This document shows positions 1 through 55,190 of a stretch of DNA of 64,000 nt, piece by piece. The position numbers were made by a program, and so were the translations under genes. The stretch's first letter is position 1, and every line of letters starts with the position of its first letter. The DNA is from a virus. Under the pieces are notes generated by a model that did not search any database, was not told the origin of the DNA, and worked only from the letters and a program-made list of their open reading frames with translations. The stretch lies in the IMG/VR virus record IMGVR_UViG_3300050821_000645. One strand, given 5' to 3'.

Positions 1-35
1 CTGAGCCGCCCCCGACGCATTTGTGGACGTTCTAG

Positions 36-617
36 ATGCCAGCAGTCGCCGGGTCGCAATGGAACGAGCGCAGCATAGGGCGCGCTATCTTCGAGCAGGC
101 GTTTACGCGCAAGCACGTCGTGCTGCTGCCGAATTCGTACTTCACGGGGTATGAGACCGACCTGCTGATAGTGCGCAACGACCTGCGCCTGGTCGACATC
201 GAGATCAAGCGCAGCCGCAGCGACTTCAGGGCTGACCAGCACAAAGATAAGTGGTGGAAATACGGCCCTTACGCACCTGATCCCAGCGGCGCACAGATGC
301 CATGGGGTACTGGACCTCGGATGGTACCCAGCAAGGAGCGCCGGGAGTGGCCAATCAGGATCTGGAAGCACTACTATGCGCTGCCTGCCGAGATATGGAC
401 CCCAGAGCTAGAGGCCGAGATCAGCCCCAAGTCGGGCATCATGCTGCTCAAGGAGCGGTACACCGAGACCCAGCTCAAGGAGTGGGAGGTCAAGCAGGCG
501 GTGAACCTGCGCATCCACCGGCAGGCTAAGCCCAACAAGGACGCCAAGCCTATAGATGCGGCCAGCGCCATTGACGTTGCGCGGCTGTGCAACACCCGTA
601 TGTGGGCTGTGCTATGA
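36..617 (+). CDS. PD-(D/E)XK family nuclease-like protein
   Basis: 193-aa ORF; segment ...GYETDLLIVRNDLRLVDIEIKRS fits the D...(D/E)xK nuclease core; first complete ORF in window. Confidence 0.5.
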   Translation: MPAVAGSQWNERSIGRAIFEQAFTRKHVVLLPNSYFTGYETDLLIVRNDLRLVDIEIKRSRSDFRADQHKDKWWKYGPYAPDPSGAQMPWGTGPRMVPSKERREWPIRIWKHYYALPAEIWTPELEAEISPKSGIMLLKERYTETQLKEWEVKQAVNLRIHRQAKPNKDAKPIDAASAIDVARLCNTRMWAVL

Positions 618-1799: not shown

Positions 1800-1827
1800 T
1801 GATCCCAGGCAACAACTGGAGAGTGAA

Positions 1828-2199
1828 ATGAGTGATTCCTTCGACAAGATCGACAACGACGAGCTTCGTGCCGCCATCGGGCGCTTCAGCGTCTTCCTGC
1901 GCAATGACTACACCAAGAATGGCGACGAGTACAGCCTGAAGCAGCCCGACGCCTGGGTGCCGGACGCTCCTGGCAAGAACGTGGTCCGCATCCTGCACAC
2001 GGGTCGCGGCGGTTCCGGTGGCAGCAGCTACTGCTTCATCGTGCTCAGGGACTTCGAGAAGGGCGGCAAGCTCTGGCGGAAGGGCGACATTCTGATGGCA
2101 GCTGGCTATAAGGCCCCAGCCTGGAACGCGGCGCGCGGCAACGTCATAGACGACAACTACGGTAACGCCACCTGGGCTGGCCCGGGATACCTGCGATGA
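1828..2199 (+). CDS. hypothetical protein
   Basis: 123-aa ORF preceded by GGAGAG RBS-like sequence. Confidence 0.45.
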   Translation: MSDSFDKIDNDELRAAIGRFSVFLRNDYTKNGDEYSLKQPDAWVPDAPGKNVVRILHTGRGGSGGSSYCFIVLRDFEKGGKLWRKGDILMAAGYKAPAWNAARGNVIDDNYGNATWAGPGYLR

Positions 2200-22429: not shown

Positions 22430-22500
22430 CGGCCACGACAGGCCGCCAGCTGGGCGGTACAGCGCCTCCAAAGCGCATGACGGGTGGTTCGATTCCATCG
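22430..22500 (+). tRNA. tRNA-like element, Trp-type (anticodon CCA), noncanonical D-arm
   Basis: acceptor AGGCCGC/GCGGCCT (7 bp), G73, 3' CCA, T-arm GGTGG-TTCGATT-CCATC, anticodon loop CTCCAAA identical to canonical tRNA-Trp with U33/A37; D-arm region is only about 11-12 nt so the cloverleaf is incomplete. Confidence 0.5.
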
Positions 22501-22507
22501 CGGCCTG

Positions 22508-22583
22508 CCACTTCTATTGCGACGTAGCTCAGCAGCAGAGCAGGTGGTTCATACCCACAAGGTCGTGAGTGCAACTCTCACCG
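22508..22583 (+). ncRNA. second tRNA-like / pseudo-tRNA element (anticodon loop TTCATAC, CAT)
   Basis: TAGCTCAGC D-arm (GCTC/GAGC stem), perfect T-stem GTGAG/CTCAC, but acceptor stem pairs only with a bulge and T-loop is TGCAACT; degenerate. Confidence 0.25.
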
Positions 22584-45756: not shown

Positions 45757-46269
45757 ATGTTCGACAAACTCGTAGATCTACTTGTCGGATGTGTGGATCT
45801 ATTTCGCTTCTGGGTCATTATGGCCCCGTACGAGTCAGGTGTCAAGCTTCGGCTAGGGAAATTCGTTAGGGTACTGGATCCGGGCTGGAACTGGATGATC
45901 CCATTCGGGATAGATCAGTACGAGCACGAGCACGTTGTGCCGCGCACACATGCCCTTACGGCGCAAAGCGTAACACTCAAGGACGGTAAGCAGGTGGGCT
46001 TCGAGGCTGTTATCACGTACAAGGTGCGCGACATCAAAGTGGCACTGCTCGAAGTCGAGAACGCCGATCACGCCATAGCTGATAGCTGCTCAGGTCAGAT
46101 AGCTCACACTATCATGCAGTACACCTGGGATGCTATTGTTAGCACGGATGACTGGAGCGACCGTGTTTTAAAGGCGTGCAGGCAGCGCGGCTTTAAGTTC
46201 GGGCTAGAGATCATCAGCGTGCAGTTCGGCACGCTTGCGCTCATCAAGAACCTGCGGATACTCAAGTAA
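45757..46269 (+). CDS. SPFH / band-7 (stomatin-prohibitin-HflK/C) domain protein
   Basis: FVRVLDPGWNWMIPFGIDQ...QSVTLKDGKQVGFEAVITYKVRDIKVALLEVEN matches SPFH core (G.h.rvvepG.hfiiPf...v.tkDn..v.vdavv.yrv.d). Confidence 0.6.
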   Translation: MFDKLVDLLVGCVDLFRFWVIMAPYESGVKLRLGKFVRVLDPGWNWMIPFGIDQYEHEHVVPRTHALTAQSVTLKDGKQVGFEAVITYKVRDIKVALLEVENADHAIADSCSGQIAHTIMQYTWDAIVSTDDWSDRVLKACRQRGFKFGLEIISVQFGTLALIKNLRILK

Positions 46270-46310: not shown

Positions 46311-47120
46311 TTGAGCCAGTTACACGACGCTAAGATCCTTGTGCTCGATATCGAGACCAGTCCCATTGAGGCTTATTGCTGGGCGCTCTGGGATCAGAAC
46401 GTCGGTCTCAATCAGATTAAGGTCGAATGGAGCATACTGAGCTTCGCGGCTAAATGGCTCGGTAAGCCGAAGGTGATCTACGAGGACACCAGCAAAAACG
46501 GCATCGGTAAATTCCGTGACGACAAGAAGCTGCTTATTAAGCTGCACGCGTTGCTCGACGAGGCCGACATAGTTGTCGCGCAGAACGGGCGCCGGTTCGA
46601 CGTCAAGAAGATCAACGCGCGCATGGTGATGGCGGGCCTTAAGCCGTACTCACCGATCCGCATCGTCGACACACTGGAGGCAGCCAAGAAGTACTTTTCA
46701 TTCACCAGCAATAAGCTGGAGTGGGCATCCGAGTGGCTCACCTCGCAGAAGAAGCTAGCGCACAAAGAGTTCCCTGGCTTCGAGCTGTGGAAGGAATGCT
46801 TAGCCGGTAATCCCAAGGCTTGGCGCGTGATGAAGAAGTACAACATCCGCGACGTCACGGCGACCGAGGAGTACTACATCCGCATCCGTCCGTGGATCGC
46901 CAATCACCCGAACATGGGCGTATACTCGGACATCATTGAGCATACGTGCACGAACTGCGCATCCCCCAACCTGCAGTCGCGCGGCAAGCAGCGCCTGCAG
47001 CAGGGGCTATACAACCGGTACCAGTGCCAGGACTGCGGCAAGTGGAGTCGTGGCAAGAACATGCTGCTAGCCATCAATAAACGCAAGGCGTTGCTGACGA
47101 ACATCGGCGACAAATCGTAA
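46311..47120 (+). CDS. RNase H-like (DEDD-type) 3'-5' exonuclease with C-terminal zinc ribbon
   Basis: ILVLDIETSP (Exo I), YNIRDV (Exo III-like), C-terminal CTNC...CQDCG. Confidence 0.55.
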   Translation: MSQLHDAKILVLDIETSPIEAYCWALWDQNVGLNQIKVEWSILSFAAKWLGKPKVIYEDTSKNGIGKFRDDKKLLIKLHALLDEADIVVAQNGRRFDVKKINARMVMAGLKPYSPIRIVDTLEAAKKYFSFTSNKLEWASEWLTSQKKLAHKEFPGFELWKECLAGNPKAWRVMKKYNIRDVTATEEYYIRIRPWIANHPNMGVYSDIIEHTCTNCASPNLQSRGKQRLQQGLYNRYQCQDCGKWSRGKNMLLAINKRKALLTNIGDKS

Positions 47121-50100
47121 ATGGATCAGAACCCGTATAACACAGAAGACAAGCCGGTAGATATCAGCGGTGCGTTGTCGCGCCTCGGGCATGTGCTGTA
47201 CACGCCGCAGGGCGGGGACCCGCGCACGCTGGCTAAGGTCGAACTTGGGCGGATGGGCGGAGATCTTGATGCAGCAAAGTCGGTGGGGCACGCACTTCTC
47301 GCAAAGAGCGCAGCCGGTTACGAGGCCATGGGCAGCCCGTTGGGATCCAATGAGCACGTGGACGAGACCGCAGCCCTACTGGGGCCAAAGTCCATCAGCC
47401 CCGAGGGGCAGTCATCCGTGCAGCGCCTCATGGATAACCTGGGGTCCGTCGGGAAGGCGACAGGAATAAGCGACCTCGCGCACTCGCTGAGCAGTAAGTA
47501 CAATGCGATGCAAGGCGCCGCAGAGCCGCTGATCCAAAAGTACGCCGGTATCCCGGCAGCAGCTGCCGCGCATGCTGCCTTCGAGACCGCCCCGCAGGCG
47601 GCTATTCCCGGGCTGGGAGAAGAGAGGGCCGCCGCTGGAGCCGCCGCTGATGTTGCGCGCACCCTGGGGCCGAGTGACCGCATACGCCAGGTCGCCGCTG
47701 ATTACATGAAGAGCGCCGGTCTGCCGCACGTGCCGCCGGGCGCTCCACTGAAGGTAGATCCTAATCGTGCCAGCGCCATCGCGCAAGCATTCGACGCGAT
47801 GCCTCACGCCCCCAATGACCCCAAGGTGGCGGCGTCGTATGATGCGATGATTAAGGAGACGATGGCGCAGTACCAGGCCATGAAGGCATCTGGCTTCCGG
47901 GCTGAGTTCATGCCACAGGGTCAGAACCCGTACCCGAAGATCAGCGACACGCTGCACGACATCCAGCAGAATAATCACATGTTTGTGTTCCCGACGGAGA
48001 GCGGCTTCGGCAGCGGCGACCTTGGCGGCAACCCGTTGCTGCAGCAGTCTGGTGAGAGTTTCAACGGCGTACCTGCGACGAACAACGACATATTCCGTGC
48101 GGTGCACGACTACTTCGGGCACGCTAAGGAGGGCAACACCTTCAGGGCGAACGGCGAAGAGACCGCGTGGGCCAATCACGCAGCGATGTACTCCCCTGCA
48201 GCCCGGCCAGCTATGACCACCGAAACCCGTGGCCAGAATAGCTGGGTGAACTTCGGTCCACATGGTGAGGCCAACCGAACTACTAGCGGCGCAGATACGG
48301 TGTACGCCCCACAGAAGATTGGGTTATTGCCTGATGAGTTCAGTCAGGCACCGCCAAGTCCGTATGACATCCTGGCGCAGTACCACGCAGATAACGGCGG
48401 GTCTACCTATCACCCTGGCACGAGCAACATACCTGATACCGGGTACTCCGTCAGTCTACATCCCGGCCGCGCCACAGTGATGGGCACCCCGCCAACGGGC
48501 CGCAACCTGAGCGACTACGTGCAGGCCAATCAGGACGCATTCGACAAGGATCCTGGCGCGCACCTCGGTACCTGGCATGACAAGGACGACTCCGGGATGC
48601 ACTACCTGGATGTGTCGCACGTCGACCCCAACCTGGATAGCGCCATGGAGAAGGCAAAGGGCGCCAACCAGAAGGCGATATTCGATTTGGGCGGCAAGCA
48701 AGAGATCCCTAACCCGCACTACGACCCCACGACTGATACTCAGGGTGCGCCCCAGGATGATAACCCGCTGGCTGCTGTAAGTCCCCTCAGGTTCACGGCA
48801 ACAGATCCCGGTAGAGTGCACCTAAACTCGCTCCCGGAGGCCCTGGAGCGCGAAGGAGAGGCCGCCAGACGCGACGCAGCCGATAGGCCGCCACCAGAAC
48901 CAATCCTCGACCTGAACGGCCCACTGCCGCCTCCTAATGCGTCCTACATAGGCAGCCAGGCATTCGCCGAGGGCGGAGAGGTGGGAGTGCTAGGGGATGC
49001 GCTCGCAACCGCCGCCCGGCTGCCGACACCGGCTGCGTTGAAGGCGAAATACGCAGACAATCCGCAGGCTATCCAGAACTTCCACGACTGGGCCAAAAAT
49101 ACTGCCGTCTCTTACACTAATGGCGAGCCTATACCGGTGTACCACAACACCGACGCGTTGAACGACTTCTCTGCCTTCAGGCCGTACCGTGGCGACATCG
49201 GCAGCCACTTTGGTACCAAGGGGCAGGCCAACATGCGCGGCGCCGCTGTACAGGGGCGCGTGCCGCCCGCTGTCGAGGAATCATCGCGCACTACCGGAGA
49301 CCTTAATCCGGTGCCCAAGAATCAGGTATCTGGTCAGCGCACTATACCCGCGTACCTTAGCATCCAGAACCCGTTGCGCACCCCAGATCTTGGGGAGTGG
49401 GGCCACGACCAGCTGAAGCAGTACCTGCTAGGAGAGGGAGAGCACGGCGCAGATGAAAATGCCATGTACCCAGCAGAGGCTGCTGGTATAGACCCAAAGG
49501 CCGTCGCAGCCACACAGAACAACCACCAGCTGCGCAAGGTGCTGCAGGATCACGGCTACGACGGCATCGTGTACGCTAACAATGGCGAACCCGACATGCC
49601 GCCTGCGATCCAGCTGGCGCGGCAGGATGCGGAGCAGAAGCGGCAGGCGTTCTTGCAAGACCCAGCCAACAAGCCGTACTGGGATACAGTTACTGGCGCC
49701 AATACCGCATCTCGCGGCGCGGGAGATATGGATGCGGCGGCGGCTCAATTTCCAGAGCAGCATGCGCAGTACCAGGCACTTGCTGGGCAATATCACTTGG
49801 CAGACGAAGCATACCGCCGTTTCATGCACTCAGCTGGCGACAACCCGGCCGACTCATACGTCGCATTCGACCCGTCTCAGGTGAAGTCCGCTGTCGGCAA
49901 CACGGGCGAGTTCGATCCCGGTACGCAGGACATCAATCACGCAGCCGGTGGTGAAGTGCGCAGCTACGCGGATGGCGGCGGGGTTGAGGGAGCTGGTTTG
50001 ATCGGTGACGCCATACAGCAGGTATCACATCTGCCTTTGACGGCTACGGCTGCTGAGGCCGCGCCTCTCGCGGAGCACGTCGCTCAGTATGGCGGGGCCA

Positions 50101-51536
50101 CCTACAGCCCGTCCACAGGGGCCCTGCATCGCTCTGGTAGCGTGACATCAGACCCCGAGTCTACCGTTGCGCTTGACCACGCACCAGACCCAGATGAGAT
50201 CCACGACTTCATGATGCAGAACCAGCATGTGCTAGGTGAAGATCCGCAGGCTGTGCTGCACATCACCAGCGACGACAATGGTAATCACTTCATACGCACT
50301 GGCACTCACGCGCCCGAGATGCCGCAAGACCCAGAGAGCATGGAGCCTTCGGAGCTAATAGACAAGTACCTTCAGTCTGGCTTAAGCTCGAAGCACCCTA
50401 TGGCCAGCGAGGCTGACTACAGCGCTCGCCCCAGTACTCCGTGGACTGCAGGTCAGCAGACAGTGGTGAACCCGAAACGGAATGCGTTCCCTGGAGTGTA
50501 CGGAGATCCACGCCAGGTGATCGCAGACGCGGCAGCGAAAGTTGGTCCTGAAGATCCTCTAATGCAGCGATTGTTTGGAGTATCACGTGCCGATCTCTCA
50601 GACTTGTCTCTGTCCAGGCAGGGAAATGAACTTGGGGTTCTGCCAGGGGAAAAGCAGAATCCACAAGGAGCAGCATCAGCTCGCGACGTAATGACTCCGC
50701 AGAACGAGCAACGCCTAATTGACGTTCTCGGCGAAGCTCGCAAGGCACCTGGTCTGTATCAGGGGATGACGGGTTGGTACGCAATGGATCCTCTGTTTCA
50801 GCACTTCGTTAAGGAGTTCGGCCCCGATGAGGCGATCGCACGATACAAGCAGTTTAATACACTGAGCGGAATGGCATCACCAGGATCTGACGTCGGTTCA
50901 GAGATCGCTCGTGGGTCAACTGCGAATGCGCTGCACACGCAGGGGCGCTTCAATGACTTCGTACGCTACGGGGGTGGGGTGGAGGATTCAGGTTCATCCG
51001 GTCGGCCTGCCGACATGGCGGACCTTCCAGGTCATGTCTATCATAGGAGTCAAGCGCTTCCCATGCAGCAGTACCTGGAGAGCGGTGAGATGCAGATGAA
51101 GTCACCTAAGGTGCCTATGTACATCGCAGCCAGCGGCGTTCCAGAAACTGGCTTTCAGACGTCGACTCCGGTTGGGGACGCTCACTGGGCCCGTGCAGTA
51201 GGGCTTGCTGACACCAGGAACATGCGCACACTAAAGGGGCAGGAAATAGTTCCAGGTTCCTCCGTGAGCACTCCAGAGATGCAAACTCTTGCGCCATGGT
51301 GGCGTGATCGAGTGGCGGGTCCTGCTGGTCTTGAAAGTGTTCCTGCTCAGGCTCTGGCGTGGGGCGCGTTCTCTCCACAAACCGGGGTAAAATCTGCGAT
51401 AGGAGCACCAAAGCTAGAGATCCTATCCACACAAATAGGTAAGCTGGCAGATCGCTTAGGAATATCACCGGAGGAGGCCCGTGACCGGGTCGTGCGCGGT
51501 GAAGCTGGAGCTTTCAGCGCTGGCGGCGTGGTGTAG
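47121..51536 (+). CDS. giant virion-associated protein (1,471 aa), function unknown
   Basis: largest ORF in window, last gene of the + structural block, ATGG coupling to upstream gene; no catalytic motif recognised by eye. Confidence 0.6.
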   Translation: MDQNPYNTEDKPVDISGALSRLGHVLYTPQGGDPRTLAKVELGRMGGDLDAAKSVGHALLAKSAAGYEAMGSPLGSNEHVDETAALLGPKSISPEGQSSVQRLMDNLGSVGKATGISDLAHSLSSKYNAMQGAAEPLIQKYAGIPAAAAAHAAFETAPQAAIPGLGEERAAAGAAADVARTLGPSDRIRQVAADYMKSAGLPHVPPGAPLKVDPNRASAIAQAFDAMPHAPNDPKVAASYDAMIKETMAQYQAMKASGFRAEFMPQGQNPYPKISDTLHDIQQNNHMFVFPTESGFGSGDLGGNPLLQQSGESFNGVPATNNDIFRAVHDYFGHAKEGNTFRANGEETAWANHAAMYSPAARPAMTTETRGQNSWVNFGPHGEANRTTSGADTVYAPQKIGLLPDEFSQAPPSPYDILAQYHADNGGSTYHPGTSNIPDTGYSVSLHPGRATVMGTPPTGRNLSDYVQANQDAFDKDPGAHLGTWHDKDDSGMHYLDVSHVDPNLDSAMEKAKGANQKAIFDLGGKQEIPNPHYDPTTDTQGAPQDDNPLAAVSPLRFTATDPGRVHLNSLPEALEREGEAARRDAADRPPPEPILDLNGPLPPPNASYIGSQAFAEGGEVGVLGDALATAARLPTPAALKAKYADNPQAIQNFHDWAKNTAVSYTNGEPIPVYHNTDALNDFSAFRPYRGDIGSHFGTKGQANMRGAAVQGRVPPAVEESSRTTGDLNPVPKNQVSGQRTIPAYLSIQNPLRTPDLGEWGHDQLKQYLLGEGEHGADENAMYPAEAAGIDPKAVAATQNNHQLRKVLQDHGYDGIVYANNGEPDMPPAIQLARQDAEQKRQAFLQDPANKPYWDTVTGANTASRGAGDMDAAAAQFPEQHAQYQALAGQYHLADEAYRRFMHSAGDNPADSYVAFDPSQVKSAVGNTGEFDPGTQDINHAAGGEVRSYADGGGVEGAGLIGDAIQQVSHLPLTATAAEAAPLAEHVAQYGGATYSPSTGALHRSGSVTSDPESTVALDHAPDPDEIHDFMMQNQHVLGEDPQAVLHITSDDNGNHFIRTGTHAPEMPQDPESMEPSELIDKYLQSGLSSKHPMASEADYSARPSTPWTAGQQTVVNPKRNAFPGVYGDPRQVIADAAAKVGPEDPLMQRLFGVSRADLSDLSLSRQGNELGVLPGEKQNPQGAASARDVMTPQNEQRLIDVLGEARKAPGLYQGMTGWYAMDPLFQHFVKEFGPDEAIARYKQFNTLSGMASPGSDVGSEIARGSTANALHTQGRFNDFVRYGGGVEDSGSSGRPADMADLPGHVYHRSQALPMQQYLESGEMQMKSPKVPMYIAASGVPETGFQTSTPVGDAHWARAVGLADTRNMRTLKGQEIVPGSSVSTPEMQTLAPWWRDRVAGPAGLESVPAQALAWGAFSPQTGVKSAIGAPKLEILSTQIGKLADRLGISPEEARDRVVRGEAGAFSAGGVV

Positions 51537-52379
51537 CATCACCTTGCCGCTACCCACGTGCGCCCAGAAGCGGCTCACGTACGTATCGTGGTACAGCTTA
51601 AGAACGTCGTAGTAATGCTCCCAGGCGAACTCACGGAACCATCCACTGGTGATGCTGGTGCAGACCTTCTCCAGCGCAATCAGGAAGCTTGCGCGTGGGT
51701 AGATCTTGTTACGGTACGGGATCTGGCTGCGCTCCAGCGCGAGGACGTACGCCTCCTCCAGCACCGCATTCAGCTGCAGACCTATCGGCAGCTGCTCAAA
51801 CATCAGACGGCTGGTAAGCACCTCTGACCCTGGCGGCTTGAAGTACTCATATGCGGGCCGATCCTGGTGCTTCATAACCATGTGAATGCTGTCGTGATCG
51901 TACACGTACTTGACGACCGGACTGAAGAACTCAGCCTTCGACACACTCAGCTTGGGGTGCGCGTAATCCAGCGCCTCTGCTGTGCGCGCCTCTAGGAGCG
52001 TCAGGTACTTGTCTGGTACGGTAACGCCCATGCTGCGCATCAGCCGGATGTCGTCCATGGTCTTCAGGAAGTGCTTGCTGTTCTTCTTGAAGCGATGAGA
52101 CATCTTCAGCGCCAGCAACAGCTCGATTGGCGCCACGGTGCTGTCACCGCACAGGTTAACGATCATCTCAGCAGTCGAACCAGGCCACGTGATCTCAAAC
52201 TCGACAACGCGCACCTTGTTCTTGAGGACGTACTTCTTGCCACCGTCAGTGGGGTAGCACGGAGATCCTGGTTCTACCAGCTTAAGCATCTCCTTGTACG
52301 AGCCGACAAGATCCAGGTCCCTCGGGATCCTGTCCAGCTCCGTGTACGTCCGCAAGGCTTGGCTGCCGATGACTACCAT
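51465..52379 (-). CDS. candidate minimal nucleotidyltransferase (AbiEii/MenT-like MNT fold)
   Basis: N-terminus VVIGSQALRTYTELDRIPRDLDLVG fits hG[GS]-x(9-14)-[DE]h[DE]h and resembles DUF1814 motifs (KGGTAL / RxSxDhD); VVEFEI could supply the third acidic residue; 3' end overlaps 72 nt of the convergent giant gene. Confidence 0.35.
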   Translation of the reverse strand: MVVIGSQALRTYTELDRIPRDLDLVGSYKEMLKLVEPGSPCYPTDGGKKYVLKNKVRVVEFEITWPGSTAEMIVNLCGDSTVAPIELLLALKMSHRFKKNSKHFLKTMDDIRLMRSMGVTVPDKYLTLLEARTAEALDYAHPKLSVSKAEFFSPVVKYVYDHDSIHMVMKHQDRPAYEYFKPPGSEVLTSRLMFEQLPIGLQLNAVLEEAYVLALERSQIPYRNKIYPRASFLIALEKVCTSITSGWFREFAWEHYYDVLKLYHDTYVSRFWAHVGSGKVMLHHAASAESSSFTAHDPVTGLLR

Positions 52380-52568
52380 TTAGCAGCTGCTGCCGTCCCA
52401 GTTTTCGCGTGCCTCATCCTCGGTGTACAGGTCTATGCCATTCAACGAGAACGGCAAGCTGTAGTCGTCAGCGAACTCTTCGGCTTCCTTCACCGCAGCG
52501 CCAATGGCTTCGATCTTCTCGACAAGCGCCTTCACGGCTTCCTGCTTAGTCAGTCTTGGGGTCGTCAA
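52380..52568 (-). CDS. small acidic protein immediately upstream of the NTase-like gene
   Basis: track ORF 52380..52625; probable TTG start 52568 after AAGGAG; stop abuts NTase start codon. Confidence 0.3.
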   Translation of the reverse strand: MTTPRLTKQEAVKALVEKIEAIGAAVKEAEEFADDYSLPFSLNGIDLYTEDEARENWDGSSC

Positions 52569-52860
52569 CTTCGTCTCCTTTTGGTTGGGGAACAATGCAT
52601 TTGAAATTGTAGTTGTCGTGCGCACGGTCGAACGACACCTCCAGCTCGCACCCGGCGGGCAACGCCTGCAGCGCTGATACCGGCACTGATAGGATGTGAT
52701 CCTCCTGCTGGTACGCGATCACGGCGAGCACGTTGCGCATGTCACGGATTGACTTCTCCAGGCTCTCGTAGTCGGATATCATCTGCTCCATGCCGGGCCA
52801 TACCTTGCGCGATGGCACGTCGATGCGCCGGGCAACGCGATCAGGGCTGCTGCGGGTCAT
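52546..52860 (-). CDS. hypothetical protein
   Basis: 104-aa ORF. Confidence 0.35.
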   Translation of the reverse strand: MTRSSPDRVARRIDVPSRKVWPGMEQMISDYESLEKSIRDMRNVLAVIAYQQEDHILSVPVSALQALPAGCELEVSFDRAHDNYNFKCIVPQPKGDEVDDPKTD

Positions 52861-53099
52861 ATGGACACCTTGTCTTCTAGGCCGAGGTACTCGATCAACG
52901 CCTTGCGATTCGCCAGATACGCCTCTCGCTTGTCGTGGAAGTCACGGTCAGCGATTTCACTGAAGTCAGAATAGTCGACGAAGGCAGACTCGAATCCCTC
53001 CTTCTCGATGGCGTCGTATATCCTGATCGCATCACGCGGCTTCACTTGCGCACCCGGCGCTTCTGCGGGACCGCGCACAGGTACCGCGCACCAAGCCAC
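52857..53099 (-). CDS. hypothetical protein
   Basis: 80-aa ORF. Confidence 0.35.
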   Translation of the reverse strand: MAWCAVPVRGPAEAPGAQVKPRDAIRIYDAIEKEGFESAFVDYSDFSEIADRDFHDKREAYLANRKALIEYLGLEDKVSI

Positions 53100-53510: not shown

Positions 53511-53987
53511 TCATTGTACCACACTATCCCGGGTGTGCTGCTTCGGTGTTAGGTGCCCGTACTTGTCCTTAATCTTGACCATGATGGCCTCCATCTCGGC
53601 GTACACCGGGTTCAGGTCGATGCCGTTGGCGGGGCGGTCGTCGACGATGTTCTTCAGGTGGTGCGTCTCGATAAGGATGTTGATGCACGCCTGAGCGTTC
53701 GCCAGGTGCGGTGTGCCGTCGCTGTCGTACCACTCACCCTCCCAGTACCGGTCGATGTGCCTGGCCAGCGCAGATACGTACACGCTGGCACGTGCGCCGC
53801 CCCCGCGCCAGTTCCAGGCGCCGTACTTGACGTTGCCAAGGAAGTGCGCAATCGCCTGGTACGCCTTTACGATGGGGCTGACGAGGTGCAGCGGCAGCTT
53901 CGTGATCCCGATGGCGTCCTTGGGGTTGGTGTCCTTAGTGACAAGCACACGATCATTCATAAGTTCCCGCTCACGAGTAAGCGTCAC
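53511..53987 (-). CDS. hypothetical protein in nucleotide-metabolism operon
   Basis: 158 aa; KYGAWNWRGGG...RH...GEWYDSDG...HH motifs; 4-nt overlap with downstream DUF4406 gene. Confidence 0.4.
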   Translation of the reverse strand: MTLTRERELMNDRVLVTKDTNPKDAIGITKLPLHLVSPIVKAYQAIAHFLGNVKYGAWNWRGGGARASVYVSALARHIDRYWEGEWYDSDGTPHLANAQACINILIETHHLKNIVDDRPANGIDLNPVYAEMEAIMVKIKDKYGHLTPKQHTRDSVVQ

Positions 53988-54430
53988 CCTATCATCTCCG
54001 TGTAGATGATGCTGAGAACGTCCTCGCGGTCGATGTCGGTCACCGGCTCGTAGGGTCCATTGTACTCAAGGAACTCGAAGTCTTGGCTCTGCAGGAGACC
54101 TACGAACGACTCCAGGCGTGCGCCGCGCGACTTGTACCAATCGGGTTGCAGGTAGATGATGCCCTGCACCTGGTCAGCAATCAGCTTTACGTCGCGCGCC
54201 AGGAAGTCGGCCCACGTCTTCTGGCCGCCGCTGGTGCCGGTACCGGGTGCGCCGTCGGCAGACTTGAGGGCGGCGCCCTTATCCTCTTCATCGTCCAACT
54301 CGGCCGGGCTGACGATATCGAACCCGCGATCACGCAGATCCTTGGCGGCGGCGAAGAACGCCGGAAAATTGAACTGCGGAATGCCGGACATCGGCCCAGC
54401 CAAATAGTAAGTTGTCATTTCGTCTCCCAT
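53984..54430 (-). CDS. DUF4406 / nucleoside 2-deoxyribosyltransferase-like protein
   Basis: N-terminus TTYYLAGPMSGIPQFNFPAFFAAAKDLRDRGFDIVSPAEL matches the DUF4406 hallmark (YLAGPMTG...N.P.F..AA..LR..G..V..PAE). Confidence 0.5.
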   Translation of the reverse strand: MGDEMTTYYLAGPMSGIPQFNFPAFFAAAKDLRDRGFDIVSPAELDDEEDKGAALKSADGAPGTGTSGGQKTWADFLARDVKLIADQVQGIIYLQPDWYKSRGARLESFVGLLQSQDFEFLEYNGPYEPVTDIDREDVLSIIYTEMIG

Positions 54431-54771
54431 GCGCGCTTACCGCGCCGTGCTTCGATCTTTTCAACATTGGCTTCCATCACGGAATCCATCTCTAGTCCGT
54501 AGTGCGATGCAATGCGGCAAGTGTAGTGTAGCACATCTCCCAGCTCCAGCAGCAGCTTGTTCCGATCCAGTGGCCCATCCCCACGGATCTCCTTCTTGAC
54601 GCGCTCCGTGATTGCGCCTGTGCCCTTGCGGATCTCTGCGATCACCTCGTCTACCTCGCCAGACAGCCCCAGCGTCATCACAGCCAGCTCCCTGACCGCA
54701 TCCTGCTCGCTGCCTACCTTACGCGTCCAGCCAGCCTCTACCCATTTCGCAAACTCATTCAATGTCATCAC
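54415..54771 (-). CDS. MazG-like nucleotide pyrophosphohydrolase
   Basis: LGLSGEVDEV...ELGDVLHYTCRIASHYGLEMDSVMEANVEKI matches MazG helices (EE.GE...E.GDvLw..). Confidence 0.7.
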   Translation of the reverse strand: MMTLNEFAKWVEAGWTRKVGSEQDAVRELAVMTLGLSGEVDEVIAEIRKGTGAITERVKKEIRGDGPLDRNKLLLELGDVLHYTCRIASHYGLEMDSVMEANVEKIEARRGKRAWETK

Positions 54772-55190
54772 ACCACTCCTGATGTCAGTAACTCGCGCTC
54801 CCAGTCGACAGTACCCAGCTCGGGCAGCAGCTCCGGGATCGCTTTGAGAGCCGCCTGATAAAAAAGTGAGAACTCGTGCTGGTCCATCTTGCCCCAGCTG
54901 ATCGACTTAGGCTTCAGCGCAACACGGTCTCCGCTCAGCCGAATCTCGTCCACGTACCCTGCCTGGATAGTGATCGCGAACCTCAGCGCTTCCTGGGATA
55001 GGTAGCGTTGCTGGTTCTGGAACACCAGGTTTAGCAAACCGAAGAATAGCCGATGATGGCGCGGGTTGCGGTCGCGGTGCATCTTAACCCTCAGAACCTC
55101 TCCGGTGCCGTAGAAGTTGAGGGCCTCCTTGGATGCGTCATCGACCGGAGCTAGGCCACCAATCGTGCGCACAAAGTAGTGGTCGCTCAT
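54768..55190 (-). CDS. hypothetical protein
   Basis: 140-aa ORF. Confidence 0.4.
   Translation of the reverse strand: MSDHYFVRTIGGLAPVDDASKEALNFYGTGEVLRVKMHRDRNPRHHRLFFGLLNLVFQNQQRYLSQEALRFAITIQAGYVDEIRLSGDRVALKPKSISWGKMDQHEFSLFYQAALKAIPELLPELGTVDWERELLTSGVV

Follow-up and report, generated by a model that had tools for sequence, protein, structure and literature searches.

A predicted nucleotidyltransferase family almost confined to phages is encoded with small acidic proteins that share a conserved C-terminal tail

Results

Gene arrangement at the locus

The window analysed here is the whole 64,000-nt stretch of IMG/VR virus record IMGVR_UViG_3300050821_000645, and the features under study are collected in Table 1. 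Two genes on its minus strand lie head to tail: the TAA stop of a small gene directly abuts the ATG of the gene for a 304-aa protein, in the same frame. This agrees with the original prediction, made from the DNA letters, of a small open reading frame abutting the start codon of a minimal nucleotidyltransferase. The small frame had been expected to encode about 60-80 aa. It is present and acidic and reaches upstream to a GTG at 52625 (52380..52625, 81 aa from the GTG), but the likely start is the TTG at 52568, 6 nt past an AAGGAG (52580..52575), and the protein would then have the length that gene callers picked on independent contigs. The pair closes an early/metabolic operon and adjoins nucleotide-pool and NAD-reconstitution genes.

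The 72-nt overlap with the convergent gene had also been noticed earlier, with the suspicion of a frameshift artefact. The overlap itself was confirmed, and one Logan contig shows it at the same length of 72 nt. The identical 304-aa protein is recorded from JGI, Logan and ENA, and together these records make an assembly frameshift unlikely. The overlapped segment encodes the disordered tail of the 304-aa protein. Its closest relatives share this tail, including one whose gene overlaps no convergent gene, and the nearest relative's homologue of the 1471-aa protein stops at the equivalent of residue 1065, short of the overlapped 3' end.

Table 1. Features of the locus (window positions) and parts of the 304-aa protein (residues)
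Feature	Position	Strand	Description
tRNA-Trp(CCA) gene	22440..22510	+	only tRNA in the window, 29 kb from the pair
ART-PolyVal polyvalent-protein gene	47121..51536	+	1471 aa, convergent
Overlap of the 3' ends of the 304-aa and 1471-aa genes	51465..51536		72 nt
Probable nucleotidyltransferase gene	51465..52379	-	304 aa, ATG start, begins MVVIGSQALRTYTELDRIPRDLDLVG
Partner gene	52380..52568	-	62 aa from TTG 52568; phrog_899
Shine-Dalgarno-like AAGGAG	52575..52580	-	6 nt upstream of partner TTG; read from sequence
Pfam DUF7277	residues 1-77		304-aa protein
Pfam DUF7275	residues 88-264		304-aa protein
Pol-beta core and motif III/IV-like helices	residues ~1-135		304-aa protein
Helical lobe	residues ~136-287		304-aa protein; family-specific
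Disordered tail	residues 288-304		304-aa protein

The 304-aa protein is probably an active nucleotidyltransferase

A Pfam scan of the 304-aa protein returned PF23940 with 223 bits and PF23942 with 36 bits (curated cut-off 27 for both), and the protein matched phrog_2141 at 1.5e-92. The minimal nucleotidyltransferase motif of the original prediction was found as hG[GS]-x14-DhDh, and its residues are conserved. In a family alignment of 40 sequences, G5, D21 and D23 were invariant and S6 was kept in at least 90%; the same three residues were also unchanged in relatives of only 25-32% identity. Overall, G5-S6, D21-L-D23-L and E60/E62 were each invariant or at least 90% conserved in the family. The AlphaFold (AF2) model, with a pLDDT of 91, adopts the canonical Pol-beta topology: G5-S6 lies at the turn between strand 1 and helix 1, strand 2 carries D21/D23, and strand 5 carries E60/E62. 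Structure prediction, proposed earlier as a check, thus gave the fold of a Pol-beta/minimal nucleotidyltransferase in which the catalytic residues are intact. In the tail the pLDDT was below 50. On two helices after the sheet, K92 (with H95/R96) and D110 are invariant and 18 residues apart; by residue spacing rather than superposed coordinates, this compares with 15-22 in MenT1, MenT3 and MenT4. The extra lobe carries many invariant polar residues. Fourteen enzyme positions are at least 90% Lys/Arg, while the whole enzyme is not basic, with a median pI of 6.5.

Foldseek searches with the model placed MenT1 as the best match and also listed CCA- and A-adding enzymes, so that fold similarity to solved Pol-beta superfamily members is present. 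No match was found in a PDB sequence search by either the single 304-aa protein or the family profile, nor in PADLOC and NCBIfam searches with the enzyme. The motif is short and degenerate, which, together with this missing sequence-level match to solved structures, is what could be said for a chance resemblance in a protein that is no nucleotidyltransferase. We rejected this explanation and regard it as very improbable, in view of the conservation of G5, D21, D23 and S6 across the family alignment. Conserved residues and the predicted fold indicate that the 304-aa protein is a real and probably active nucleotide-transferring enzyme. At the level of sequence profiles, the resemblance to DUF1814 (AbiEii/MenT) that had been proposed found no support: the Pfam scan gave no DUF1814/AbiEii match at E <= 0.1, only DUF7277 and DUF7275.

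Distribution of the enzyme family

At least 2,262 relatives of the enzyme were found, and 733 of 50,697 phage records (~1.4%) carry it. The carriers include T4-like, Phapecoctavirus, Acinetobacter, Aeromonas and jumbo phages, and are mostly virulent T4-like and jumbo phages. Among 185,579 cellular species genomes, a pattern scan that detects fairly close relatives only picked up five loci. All five are on MAG contigs, one of which is 167 kb long. A BFVD fold search placed DUF7275 proteins in giant eukaryotic viruses as well, an occurrence that speaks for a universal substrate. The 4-kb region had no megablast match in INPHARED, indicating a phage without a close sequenced relative, and a search of the available literature for DUF7275/DUF7277, the PHROG identifiers and the partner motifs found nothing relevant. 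The family is uncharacterised and almost confined to phages.

The small partner proteins share an invariant C-terminal tail

The upstream gene in the window encodes an acidic protein (pI 4.2) whose tail, read from the sequence, is W-D-G-S-S-C followed by the stop. It matched a family HMM with E 2.4e-17, as the sole copy in the window, and phrog_899 at 3.3e-5; 25 of the 28 aligned members matched phrog_899. The proteins of phrog_899 are small and acidic; each has a single long helix and ends in the invariant tail W-x-x-S-S-(x-x)-C. Across the family the partners are strongly acidic (median pI 4.3, net charge about -8). The tail is their most conserved feature, with the W, the S and the terminal Cys invariant. 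Of 161 partner copies, 145 end in Cys, and the tail persists where the remainder of the protein has diverged past HMM detection. Among the best representatives listed, of 1,318, the tail match ends at the last residue or within a few residues of it. The AF2 model of the window partner has a long helix (8-35), a short helix (50-55) and a disordered C-terminus. No Pfam domains were found in the upstream ORFs, and no informative fusions among the longer partner-domain proteins; one of these, of 254 aa, looks like a read-through gene call.

Partner and enzyme genes are linked in most related loci

The family HMM recovered the 161 partner copies in 73 of 88 related loci. The orientation was strongly biased: 149 copies lay upstream on the same strand as the enzyme, 11 lay downstream, and none was on the opposite strand. 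The partners form tandem arrays of 1-6 divergent paralogues upstream of one enzyme; 24, 27, 14, 3, 1 and 4 loci carried one, two, three, four, five and six copies, respectively, and the window has one. The tail pattern alone showed the same bias, occurring in 204 of 3,321 same-strand ORFs versus 7 of 4,033 opposite-strand ORFs, and it rescued 5 extra loci, raising those with a partner to 78 of 88. In 33 of 70 loci, no more than 30 nt separate the end of the closest copy from the enzyme start. No other neighbouring family occurred in more than 11 loci, and no conserved protease, exporter or further modifying enzyme was found beside the module. Reverse look-ups that started from the partner on independent contigs found the enzyme 10-1,300 nt downstream in 7 of 7 cases, and the two proteins are carried by the same phage groups. 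Enzyme and partner thus appear to constitute a conserved two-part phage module, common to most related phages. The partnership does not extend to the whole family: no tail-motif ORFs were found within 3 kb of the most distant relatives checked, which come from Streptomyces, Gordonia and Alteromonas phages. These distant members still keep every catalytic and lobe residue.

RNA genes near the enzyme were also surveyed. As a raw count, 22 of 91 loci had tRNA genes less than 4 kb away, without exception on the same strand; Gordonia phage Cucurbita too has tRNA genes near the enzyme. An RNA ligase lay 0.8-3.6 kb away in three unrelated loci (3 of ~98 within 4 kb). In the window itself, the tRNA-like gene of the original prediction is a real tRNA-Trp(CCA), but the link to the enzyme that had been suggested found no support, and we rejected it there on grounds of distance and strand.

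Comparison with known systems

MenT toxins extend the 3' ends of tRNAs with nucleotides, and an Asp, a Lys and another Asp are essential to them (PMC7450476, PMC10435456). MenA1, of 68 aa, is encoded upstream of MenT1 and consists of one long and one short helix with a disordered C-terminus; its first helix alone suffices and its C-terminal part is dispensable. The 62-aa partner and MenA1 are alike in outline, as judged from the AF2 model of the former and the published description of the latter. About 135 residues of the enzyme superpose on MenT1 of the MenT1-MenA1 pair (M. tuberculosis Rv0078A/Rv0078B) at 15-16% identity. By contrast with MenT1, the phage enzyme carries ~150 additional residues that form a highly conserved helical lobe, and it has no DUF1814 HMM match, and the phage family differs from MenAT1 in being phage-only, with a multi-copy, strongly acidic partner and an invariant W..SS..C tail. 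The regulatory Ser of R-x-S-x-D-h-D is replaced by a conserved Pro (R17-x-P19-x-D21-x-D23). As to the AbiEii/DUF1814 toxins (PF08843), which include MenT3/TglT and MenT4, there is no Pfam match to the enzyme; 130-136 of ~290 residues align, whereas the second lobe does not superpose, and no AbiEi/COG5340 antitoxin-kinase was found near the enzyme.

The antibiotic nucleotidyltransferases ANT(2'')-Ia and LnuA are much smaller than the phage enzyme and have neither a conserved second lobe nor a partner protein, and nothing in the genomic context of the enzyme points to antibiotics. MntA-HepT (type VII TA) and GlnE/GlnD are Pol-beta enzymes that nucleotidylate a hydroxyl of a dedicated partner protein. 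Their acceptors are Tyr residues of folded enzymes, whereas the candidate acceptor here would be a Ser in the disordered C-terminal tail of a 60-90-aa protein. RlaP (PF10127), found in jumbo phages and bacteria in association with RNA ligase, is likewise a phage-borne Pol-beta enzyme, thought to restore nucleotides at damaged RNA 3' ends (PMC7824862, PMC12776372), and three loci of the present family have an RNA ligase nearby. However, the phage enzyme does not match PF10127, its RNA-ligase association is sporadic, and RlaP has no tail-motif partner.

Discussion

Of the readings considered, we tentatively favour a phage-specific two-part module, in which an NTP-using enzyme, most likely with an RNA or tRNA 3' end as acceptor, is gated by a docked partner. 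The predicted core appears to be built like that of the MenT/AbiEii class, with a G-S turn, a DxD on strand 2 and a third carboxylate on strand 5, followed by helices that bear the invariant Lys and the invariant Asp. The family-specific helical lobe is predicted to pack against this catalytic core. We infer that the enzyme uses an NTP and adds one or more nucleotides to a free hydroxyl; by analogy with the nearest structural relatives, the likeliest acceptor would be the 3' end of a tRNA-type RNA. The single partner in the window, probably coupled in translation to the enzyme through the TAA-ATG junction, may dock on it via the long helix and the invariant tail, and the docked partner may gate or direct its activity. 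Several observations weigh against this picture. Up to six divergent paralogues per genome would be surprising if the partner simply regulated one enzyme, and the invariant tail has more the look of a motif for recognition or of a substrate. Taken whole, the enzyme is not basic, the most distant relatives have no tail-motif ORFs nearby, and the sole tRNA of the window is far away on the other strand.

Alternatively, the small proteins may themselves be the acceptors, an explanation that we consider possible but doubtful. Here, an NMP or a larger nucleotide-linked group would be moved to a Ser hydroxyl of the tail, and the array would supply ribosomally made scaffold or carrier proteins for modified effectors. 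This would resemble the action of MntA on HepT or of GlnE on glutamine synthetase, or a peptide-natural-product cluster in which one modifying enzyme serves several precursor genes. The strict conservation of the tail, its Cys-terminated end in most copies, its position at or near the last residue among the best representatives listed, and its persistence in copies otherwise too divergent for the HMM are all consistent with this role. So are its disorder in the isolated model, as expected of a docking or modification motif, and the several divergent paralogues upstream of a single enzyme; the many invariant polar residues of the extra lobe suggest that the substrate is a specific macromolecule. 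Nevertheless, distant members retain their catalytic and lobe residues where no tail-motif gene is near, so the ancestral acceptor was probably a different one. RNA or small molecules are the substrates of the nearest structural relatives, and the module lacks a conserved protease, exporter or further modifying enzyme at its side. We consider it rather unlikely that the enzyme's real acceptor is the Ser-Ser-(x-x)-Cys tail, with nucleotidylation and possibly further Ser/Cys chemistry producing modified phage effectors.

The original prediction leaned towards a toxin-antitoxin-like pair, and part of that likeness stands: MenT1 is the best structural match, the partner model shares the outline of MenA1, and the stop-start junction permits coupled translation. 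A MenAT1-like toxin-antitoxin, abortive-infection or addiction module, with a tRNA-blocking toxin and a direct-binding antitoxin, is nonetheless improbable. The enzyme has no DUF1814, PADLOC or NCBIfam match, and the family is virtually absent from the cellular genomes scanned for fairly close relatives but common in strictly virulent T4-like and jumbo phages. Partners occur in 1-6 copies and not 1:1, and their invariant element is the very C-terminal part that MenA1 can do without. If the partner were an inhibitor that evolved together with its toxin, a single tail motif would not be expected to persist across such distant phages. Capture of a bacterial toxin-antitoxin or Abi module, also suggested originally, is unlikely because the family is almost absent from the cellular genomes covered by the pattern scan, and it fits poorly with the variable partner number and the conserved tail. 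We consider it just as improbable that the enzyme works alone in RNA-end repair or on small molecules (cf. RlaP, CCA-adding enzymes, ANT/Lnu) and that the small genes are unrelated residents of the same hypervariable region. Large phages commonly encode RlaP and CCA-adding enzymes (PMC7824862, PMC12776372), an RNA ligase or tRNA genes are sometimes close by, and the small proteins are missing beside distant members. By contrast, the linkage is too strong and directional for chance (149 versus 11 copies, none opposite, 7 of 7 reverse look-ups, about half abutting), and the PF10127 match is lacking.

The enzyme family is common and has giant-virus relatives. It occurs in ~1.4% of sequenced phages, and among its carriers are jumbo phages and T4-like coliphage genera that have been studied well. 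A MenT-like core, exclusiveness to phages, and arrays of small acidic Cys-tailed proteins almost always upstream make of a former 'hypothetical protein' a two-component system that can be tested, and the module is present in tractable model phages (Mosigvirus, Phapecoctavirus and Acinetobacter T4-likes). If the enzyme acts on tRNA ends, it would be a new player in the tRNA-centred arms race between phages and defence. If the partner proteins are instead modified by the enzyme, this would be a new kind of phage protein chemistry, and tail nucleotidylation would represent an undescribed protein-modification system across T4-like, Phapecoctavirus and jumbo phages.

The enzyme and its gene

The reading frames of the original prediction are present in the window: the gene of the 304-residue nucleotidyltransferase (hereafter the enzyme) and, directly upstream, a small ORF at 52380..52625 whose TAA is immediately followed, in the same frame, by the ATG of the enzyme gene. 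The start of this small gene needed correction. It is most likely the TTG at 52568, 6 nt past AAGGAG, giving a 62-residue protein (the partner), the same length that gene callers picked on independent contigs. The 72-nt overlap with the convergent gene of a 1,471-residue protein, which stops at 51536, is also there. Whether it might be a frameshift artifact had been left to be checked; an assembly artifact is unlikely because the identical enzyme has entries in JGI, Logan and ENA, and the Logan contig inspected has the same overlap. The overlapped segment encodes the disordered tail of the enzyme in the AlphaFold model (residues 288-304), and this tail is kept in the closest relatives even without an overlapping convergent gene.

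Pfam divides the enzyme into DUF7277 (residues 1-77) and DUF7275 (residues 88-264), and PHROGs places it in phrog_2141; none of the three has an assigned function. The family comprises at least 2,262 matching clusters and is carried by 733 of 50,697 phage records, mainly T4-like coliphages, Acinetobacter, Aeromonas, Pseudomonas, Vibrio and jumbo phages. An alignment of 40 sequences had a mean column identity of 48% and 45 invariant positions. G5, D21, D23, K92, H95, K106, H162, D163, H166, E208, E209, E216 and R217 were still invariant in relatives at 25-32% identity, which came from phages of Streptomyces, Gordonia and Alteromonas.

Confidence in the AlphaFold model is high (pLDDT 91, pTM 0.86). 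It places G5-S6 at the turn between strand 1 and helix 1, D21 and D23 on strand 2 and E60 and E62 on strand 5, which gives the canonical Pol-beta layout. The enzyme is established as a Pol-beta-fold nucleotidyltransferase whose catalytic residues are intact. The solved structures closest to it are those of MenT toxins and small antibiotic transferases, with MenT1 of the MenAT1 complex as the top Foldseek match in the PDB (E 1.1e-3, probability 1.00). K92 and D110 could plausibly correspond to the Lys and Asp that are essential in MenT1, MenT3 and MenT4. The proposed resemblance to DUF1814 (AbiEii/MenT) holds for motifs, IGSxAL resembling GGTAL and R17-x-P-x-D21-x-D23 resembling R-x-S-x-D-h-D, but not for profiles: the scans gave no DUF1814/AbiEii, RlaP, PADLOC or NCBIfam match. 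Because the enzyme failed the profile match, the sole membership test that could be run, we did not file it as DUF1814. Nor is it RlaP. The enzyme resembles the MenT/AbiEii class in fold and, presumably, in mode of action.

A tail-motif family is linked to the enzyme

The partner belongs to phrog_899 (function unknown), which is without a Pfam model. Its copies share an N-terminal amphipathic helix (…TKQEA…I.E…EAE.IADEH.L.F.F), often followed by an AYGMGGxY segment and a variable acidic stretch, and end in W-x-x-S-S-C or W-x-x-S-S-x-x-C, with Cys as the last residue. Invariance in the alignment is limited to the columns of the W, an S and the final C. The proteins are strongly acidic (median pI 4.3, net charge about -8). 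For the partner in the window, the model has a long helix at residues 8-35 (pLDDT 85-95), a short helix at 50-55 and a disordered tail. An exhaustive profile search returned 1,318 cluster representatives, 615 of them at E up to 1e-10; among the best matches listed, the match reaches the last residue or stops a few residues short. Outside its tail, the family appears to be diversifying rapidly. Some phages carry five to seven tandem, highly divergent copies (loci L037 2453..3999, L094 5357..7985 and L090 4406..5746), and in L027 and L010 two serial tail motifs occur within single proteins (…WDSSDC…WDSSDCEY).

A profile was seeded with the partner and two neighbors of homologous enzymes and then iterated across 88 enzyme-encoding loci, 80 from IMG/VR and 8 from other sources. 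It found 161 copies in 73 of the 88 loci, figures that describe the core subfamily since they cover the closest 80 of 166 IMG/VR loci and a handful of others. Cys was the last residue in 145 copies; 149 lay upstream in the same orientation as the enzyme gene, 11 lay downstream, and the opposite strand had none. Loci held one to six tandem copies (the window exactly one, abutting the enzyme gene), and the nearest copy ended within 30 nt of the enzyme start in 33 of 70 loci. Every other gene family near the enzyme was confined to 11 loci or fewer. When the tail was searched as a regular expression, it matched 204 of 3,321 same-strand ORFs versus 7 of 4,033 on the opposite strand, and this search added divergent copies in five loci missed by the profile, one with five in tandem. 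The reverse test started from seven small proteins on independent large contigs, taken from a family-alignment search of a protein database: for all seven, a DUF7277+DUF7275 gene followed in the same orientation after 10-1,300 nt. Genetic coupling of the enzyme to tail-motif proteins is established.

Distribution and gene neighborhood

A pattern scan covering one genome from each of 185,579 species of bacteria and archaea, which reaches fairly close relatives only, found just five loci, all on metagenome-assembled contigs, one of them 167 kb. The enzyme family is established as phage-exclusive. A BFVD structure search placed DUF7275 proteins in phages and in giant eukaryotic viruses, so the family would not be confined to bacterial viruses unless the metagenomic bins hold phage DNA. 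The giant-virus proteins are longer (A0A3G5AJ90, Sylvanvirus, 508 aa; A0A3G5AE53, Satyrvirus, 571 aa).

In the window, the enzyme-partner pair ends a minus-strand early/metabolic block and faces a plus-strand virion block, whose last gene encodes the polyvalent protein. The minus-strand block includes the nucleotide-pool cluster, NinB and the overlapping NAMPT-like and Prs-like genes. In the nearest relative, the polyvalent protein ends at the position matching residue 1065, which makes the C-terminal ~400 residues an extra unannotated module. Only the closest relatives, L001-L005, conserve the 104-residue ORF; it and the phrog_17752 ORF are outside the widely conserved module. The nucleotide-pool genes hint that the phage manipulates dNTP pools or has modified DNA. 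The NAMPT-like/Prs-like pair has the layout expected of the NARP1 phage NAD+ reconstitution pathway (Adps and Namat). A NAMPT/NAPRTase-like gene also lies near the module in the unrelated contigs L093 and L094, with a Prs-like gene in L093.

Features of the window around the enzyme gene, and its tRNA gene
Feature	Position	Strand	Remarks
tRNA-Trp(CCA)	22440..22510	+	sole tRNA in window; 29 kb from enzyme gene, other strand
SPFH/Band_7 gene	45757..46269		before 1,471-aa gene
RNase_H_2-like gene	46311..47120		before 1,471-aa gene
Polyvalent protein, 1,471 aa	47121..51536	+	ART-PolyVal ADP-ribosyltransferase domain, residues 667-931
Enzyme, 304 aa	51465..52379	-	ORF reading; protein start MVVIGSQALRTYTELDRIPRDLDLVG
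104-aa ORF	52546..52860	-	function unknown; overlaps partner gene start by 23 nt
80-aa phrog_17752 ORF	52857..53099	-	function unknown; adjoins 104-aa ORF
Nucleotide-pool cluster	53511..54771	-	MazZ-like dGTP/dATP diphosphohydrolase N-domain protein, DUF4406 (nucleoside 2-deoxyribosyltransferase-like), MazG
NinB/DUF1367	54768..55190		after nucleotide-pool cluster
NAMPT-like protein, 497 aa	55652..57145	-	NCBIfam PRK09198, 5.8e-167
PRPP-synthetase-like protein, 289 aa	57129..57998	-	far under Prs cut-offs; overlaps NAMPT-like gene

Across loci, tRNA genes lay within 4 kb of the enzyme in 22 of 91, always on the same strand (about 19 of 88 with near-identical loci collapsed), and also in Gordonia phage Cucurbita; an RNA ligase lay 0.8-3.6 kb from the enzyme in three unrelated loci. 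These neighbors are hints towards RNA ends. A tRNA-Arg begins 5 nt ahead of the enzyme stop codon in L045 (3566..3640) and the near-identical L046, L049 and L051, and in Ralstonia jumbo phage RsoM2USA nine tRNA genes flank the module. The module-bearing contig L013 carries a tRNA with a CUA anticodon (1819..1892; tRNA-Pyl according to ARAGORN), possibly an amber suppressor.

Possible functions

We tentatively rank first a function in which the acceptor would be an RNA 3'-end of the tRNA type, and the small acidic partners would dock on the enzyme and gate or direct its activity. It is favored because tRNA ends are what the closest functional relatives act on and because distant members work without a partner; the most distant relatives checked had no tail-motif ORFs within 3 kb. 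A universal substrate would also suit an enzyme that is kept in giant viruses and in phages whose hosts differ widely. The partner tail could instead itself be the acceptor, as the invariance of the tail rather than the helix and the multiple copies might suggest, but we consider this doubtful and rank it second. The captured toxin-antitoxin or Abi module of the original prediction, in a classical MenAT1-like form, comes third and seems improbable: the partner outline genuinely resembles MenA1, but phage-only distribution, partner copy number and the conserved C-terminal tail argue against it, whereas MenA1 needs no more than its first helix.

The enzyme is best regarded as representing an uncharacterized family of phage nucleotidyltransferases that has both a second lobe and a partner family of its own; no mention of the Pfam and PHROG identifiers or the partner motifs was found in the literature searched. 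The main new result is the identity of the small upstream protein, a member of a tail-motif family linked to the enzyme.
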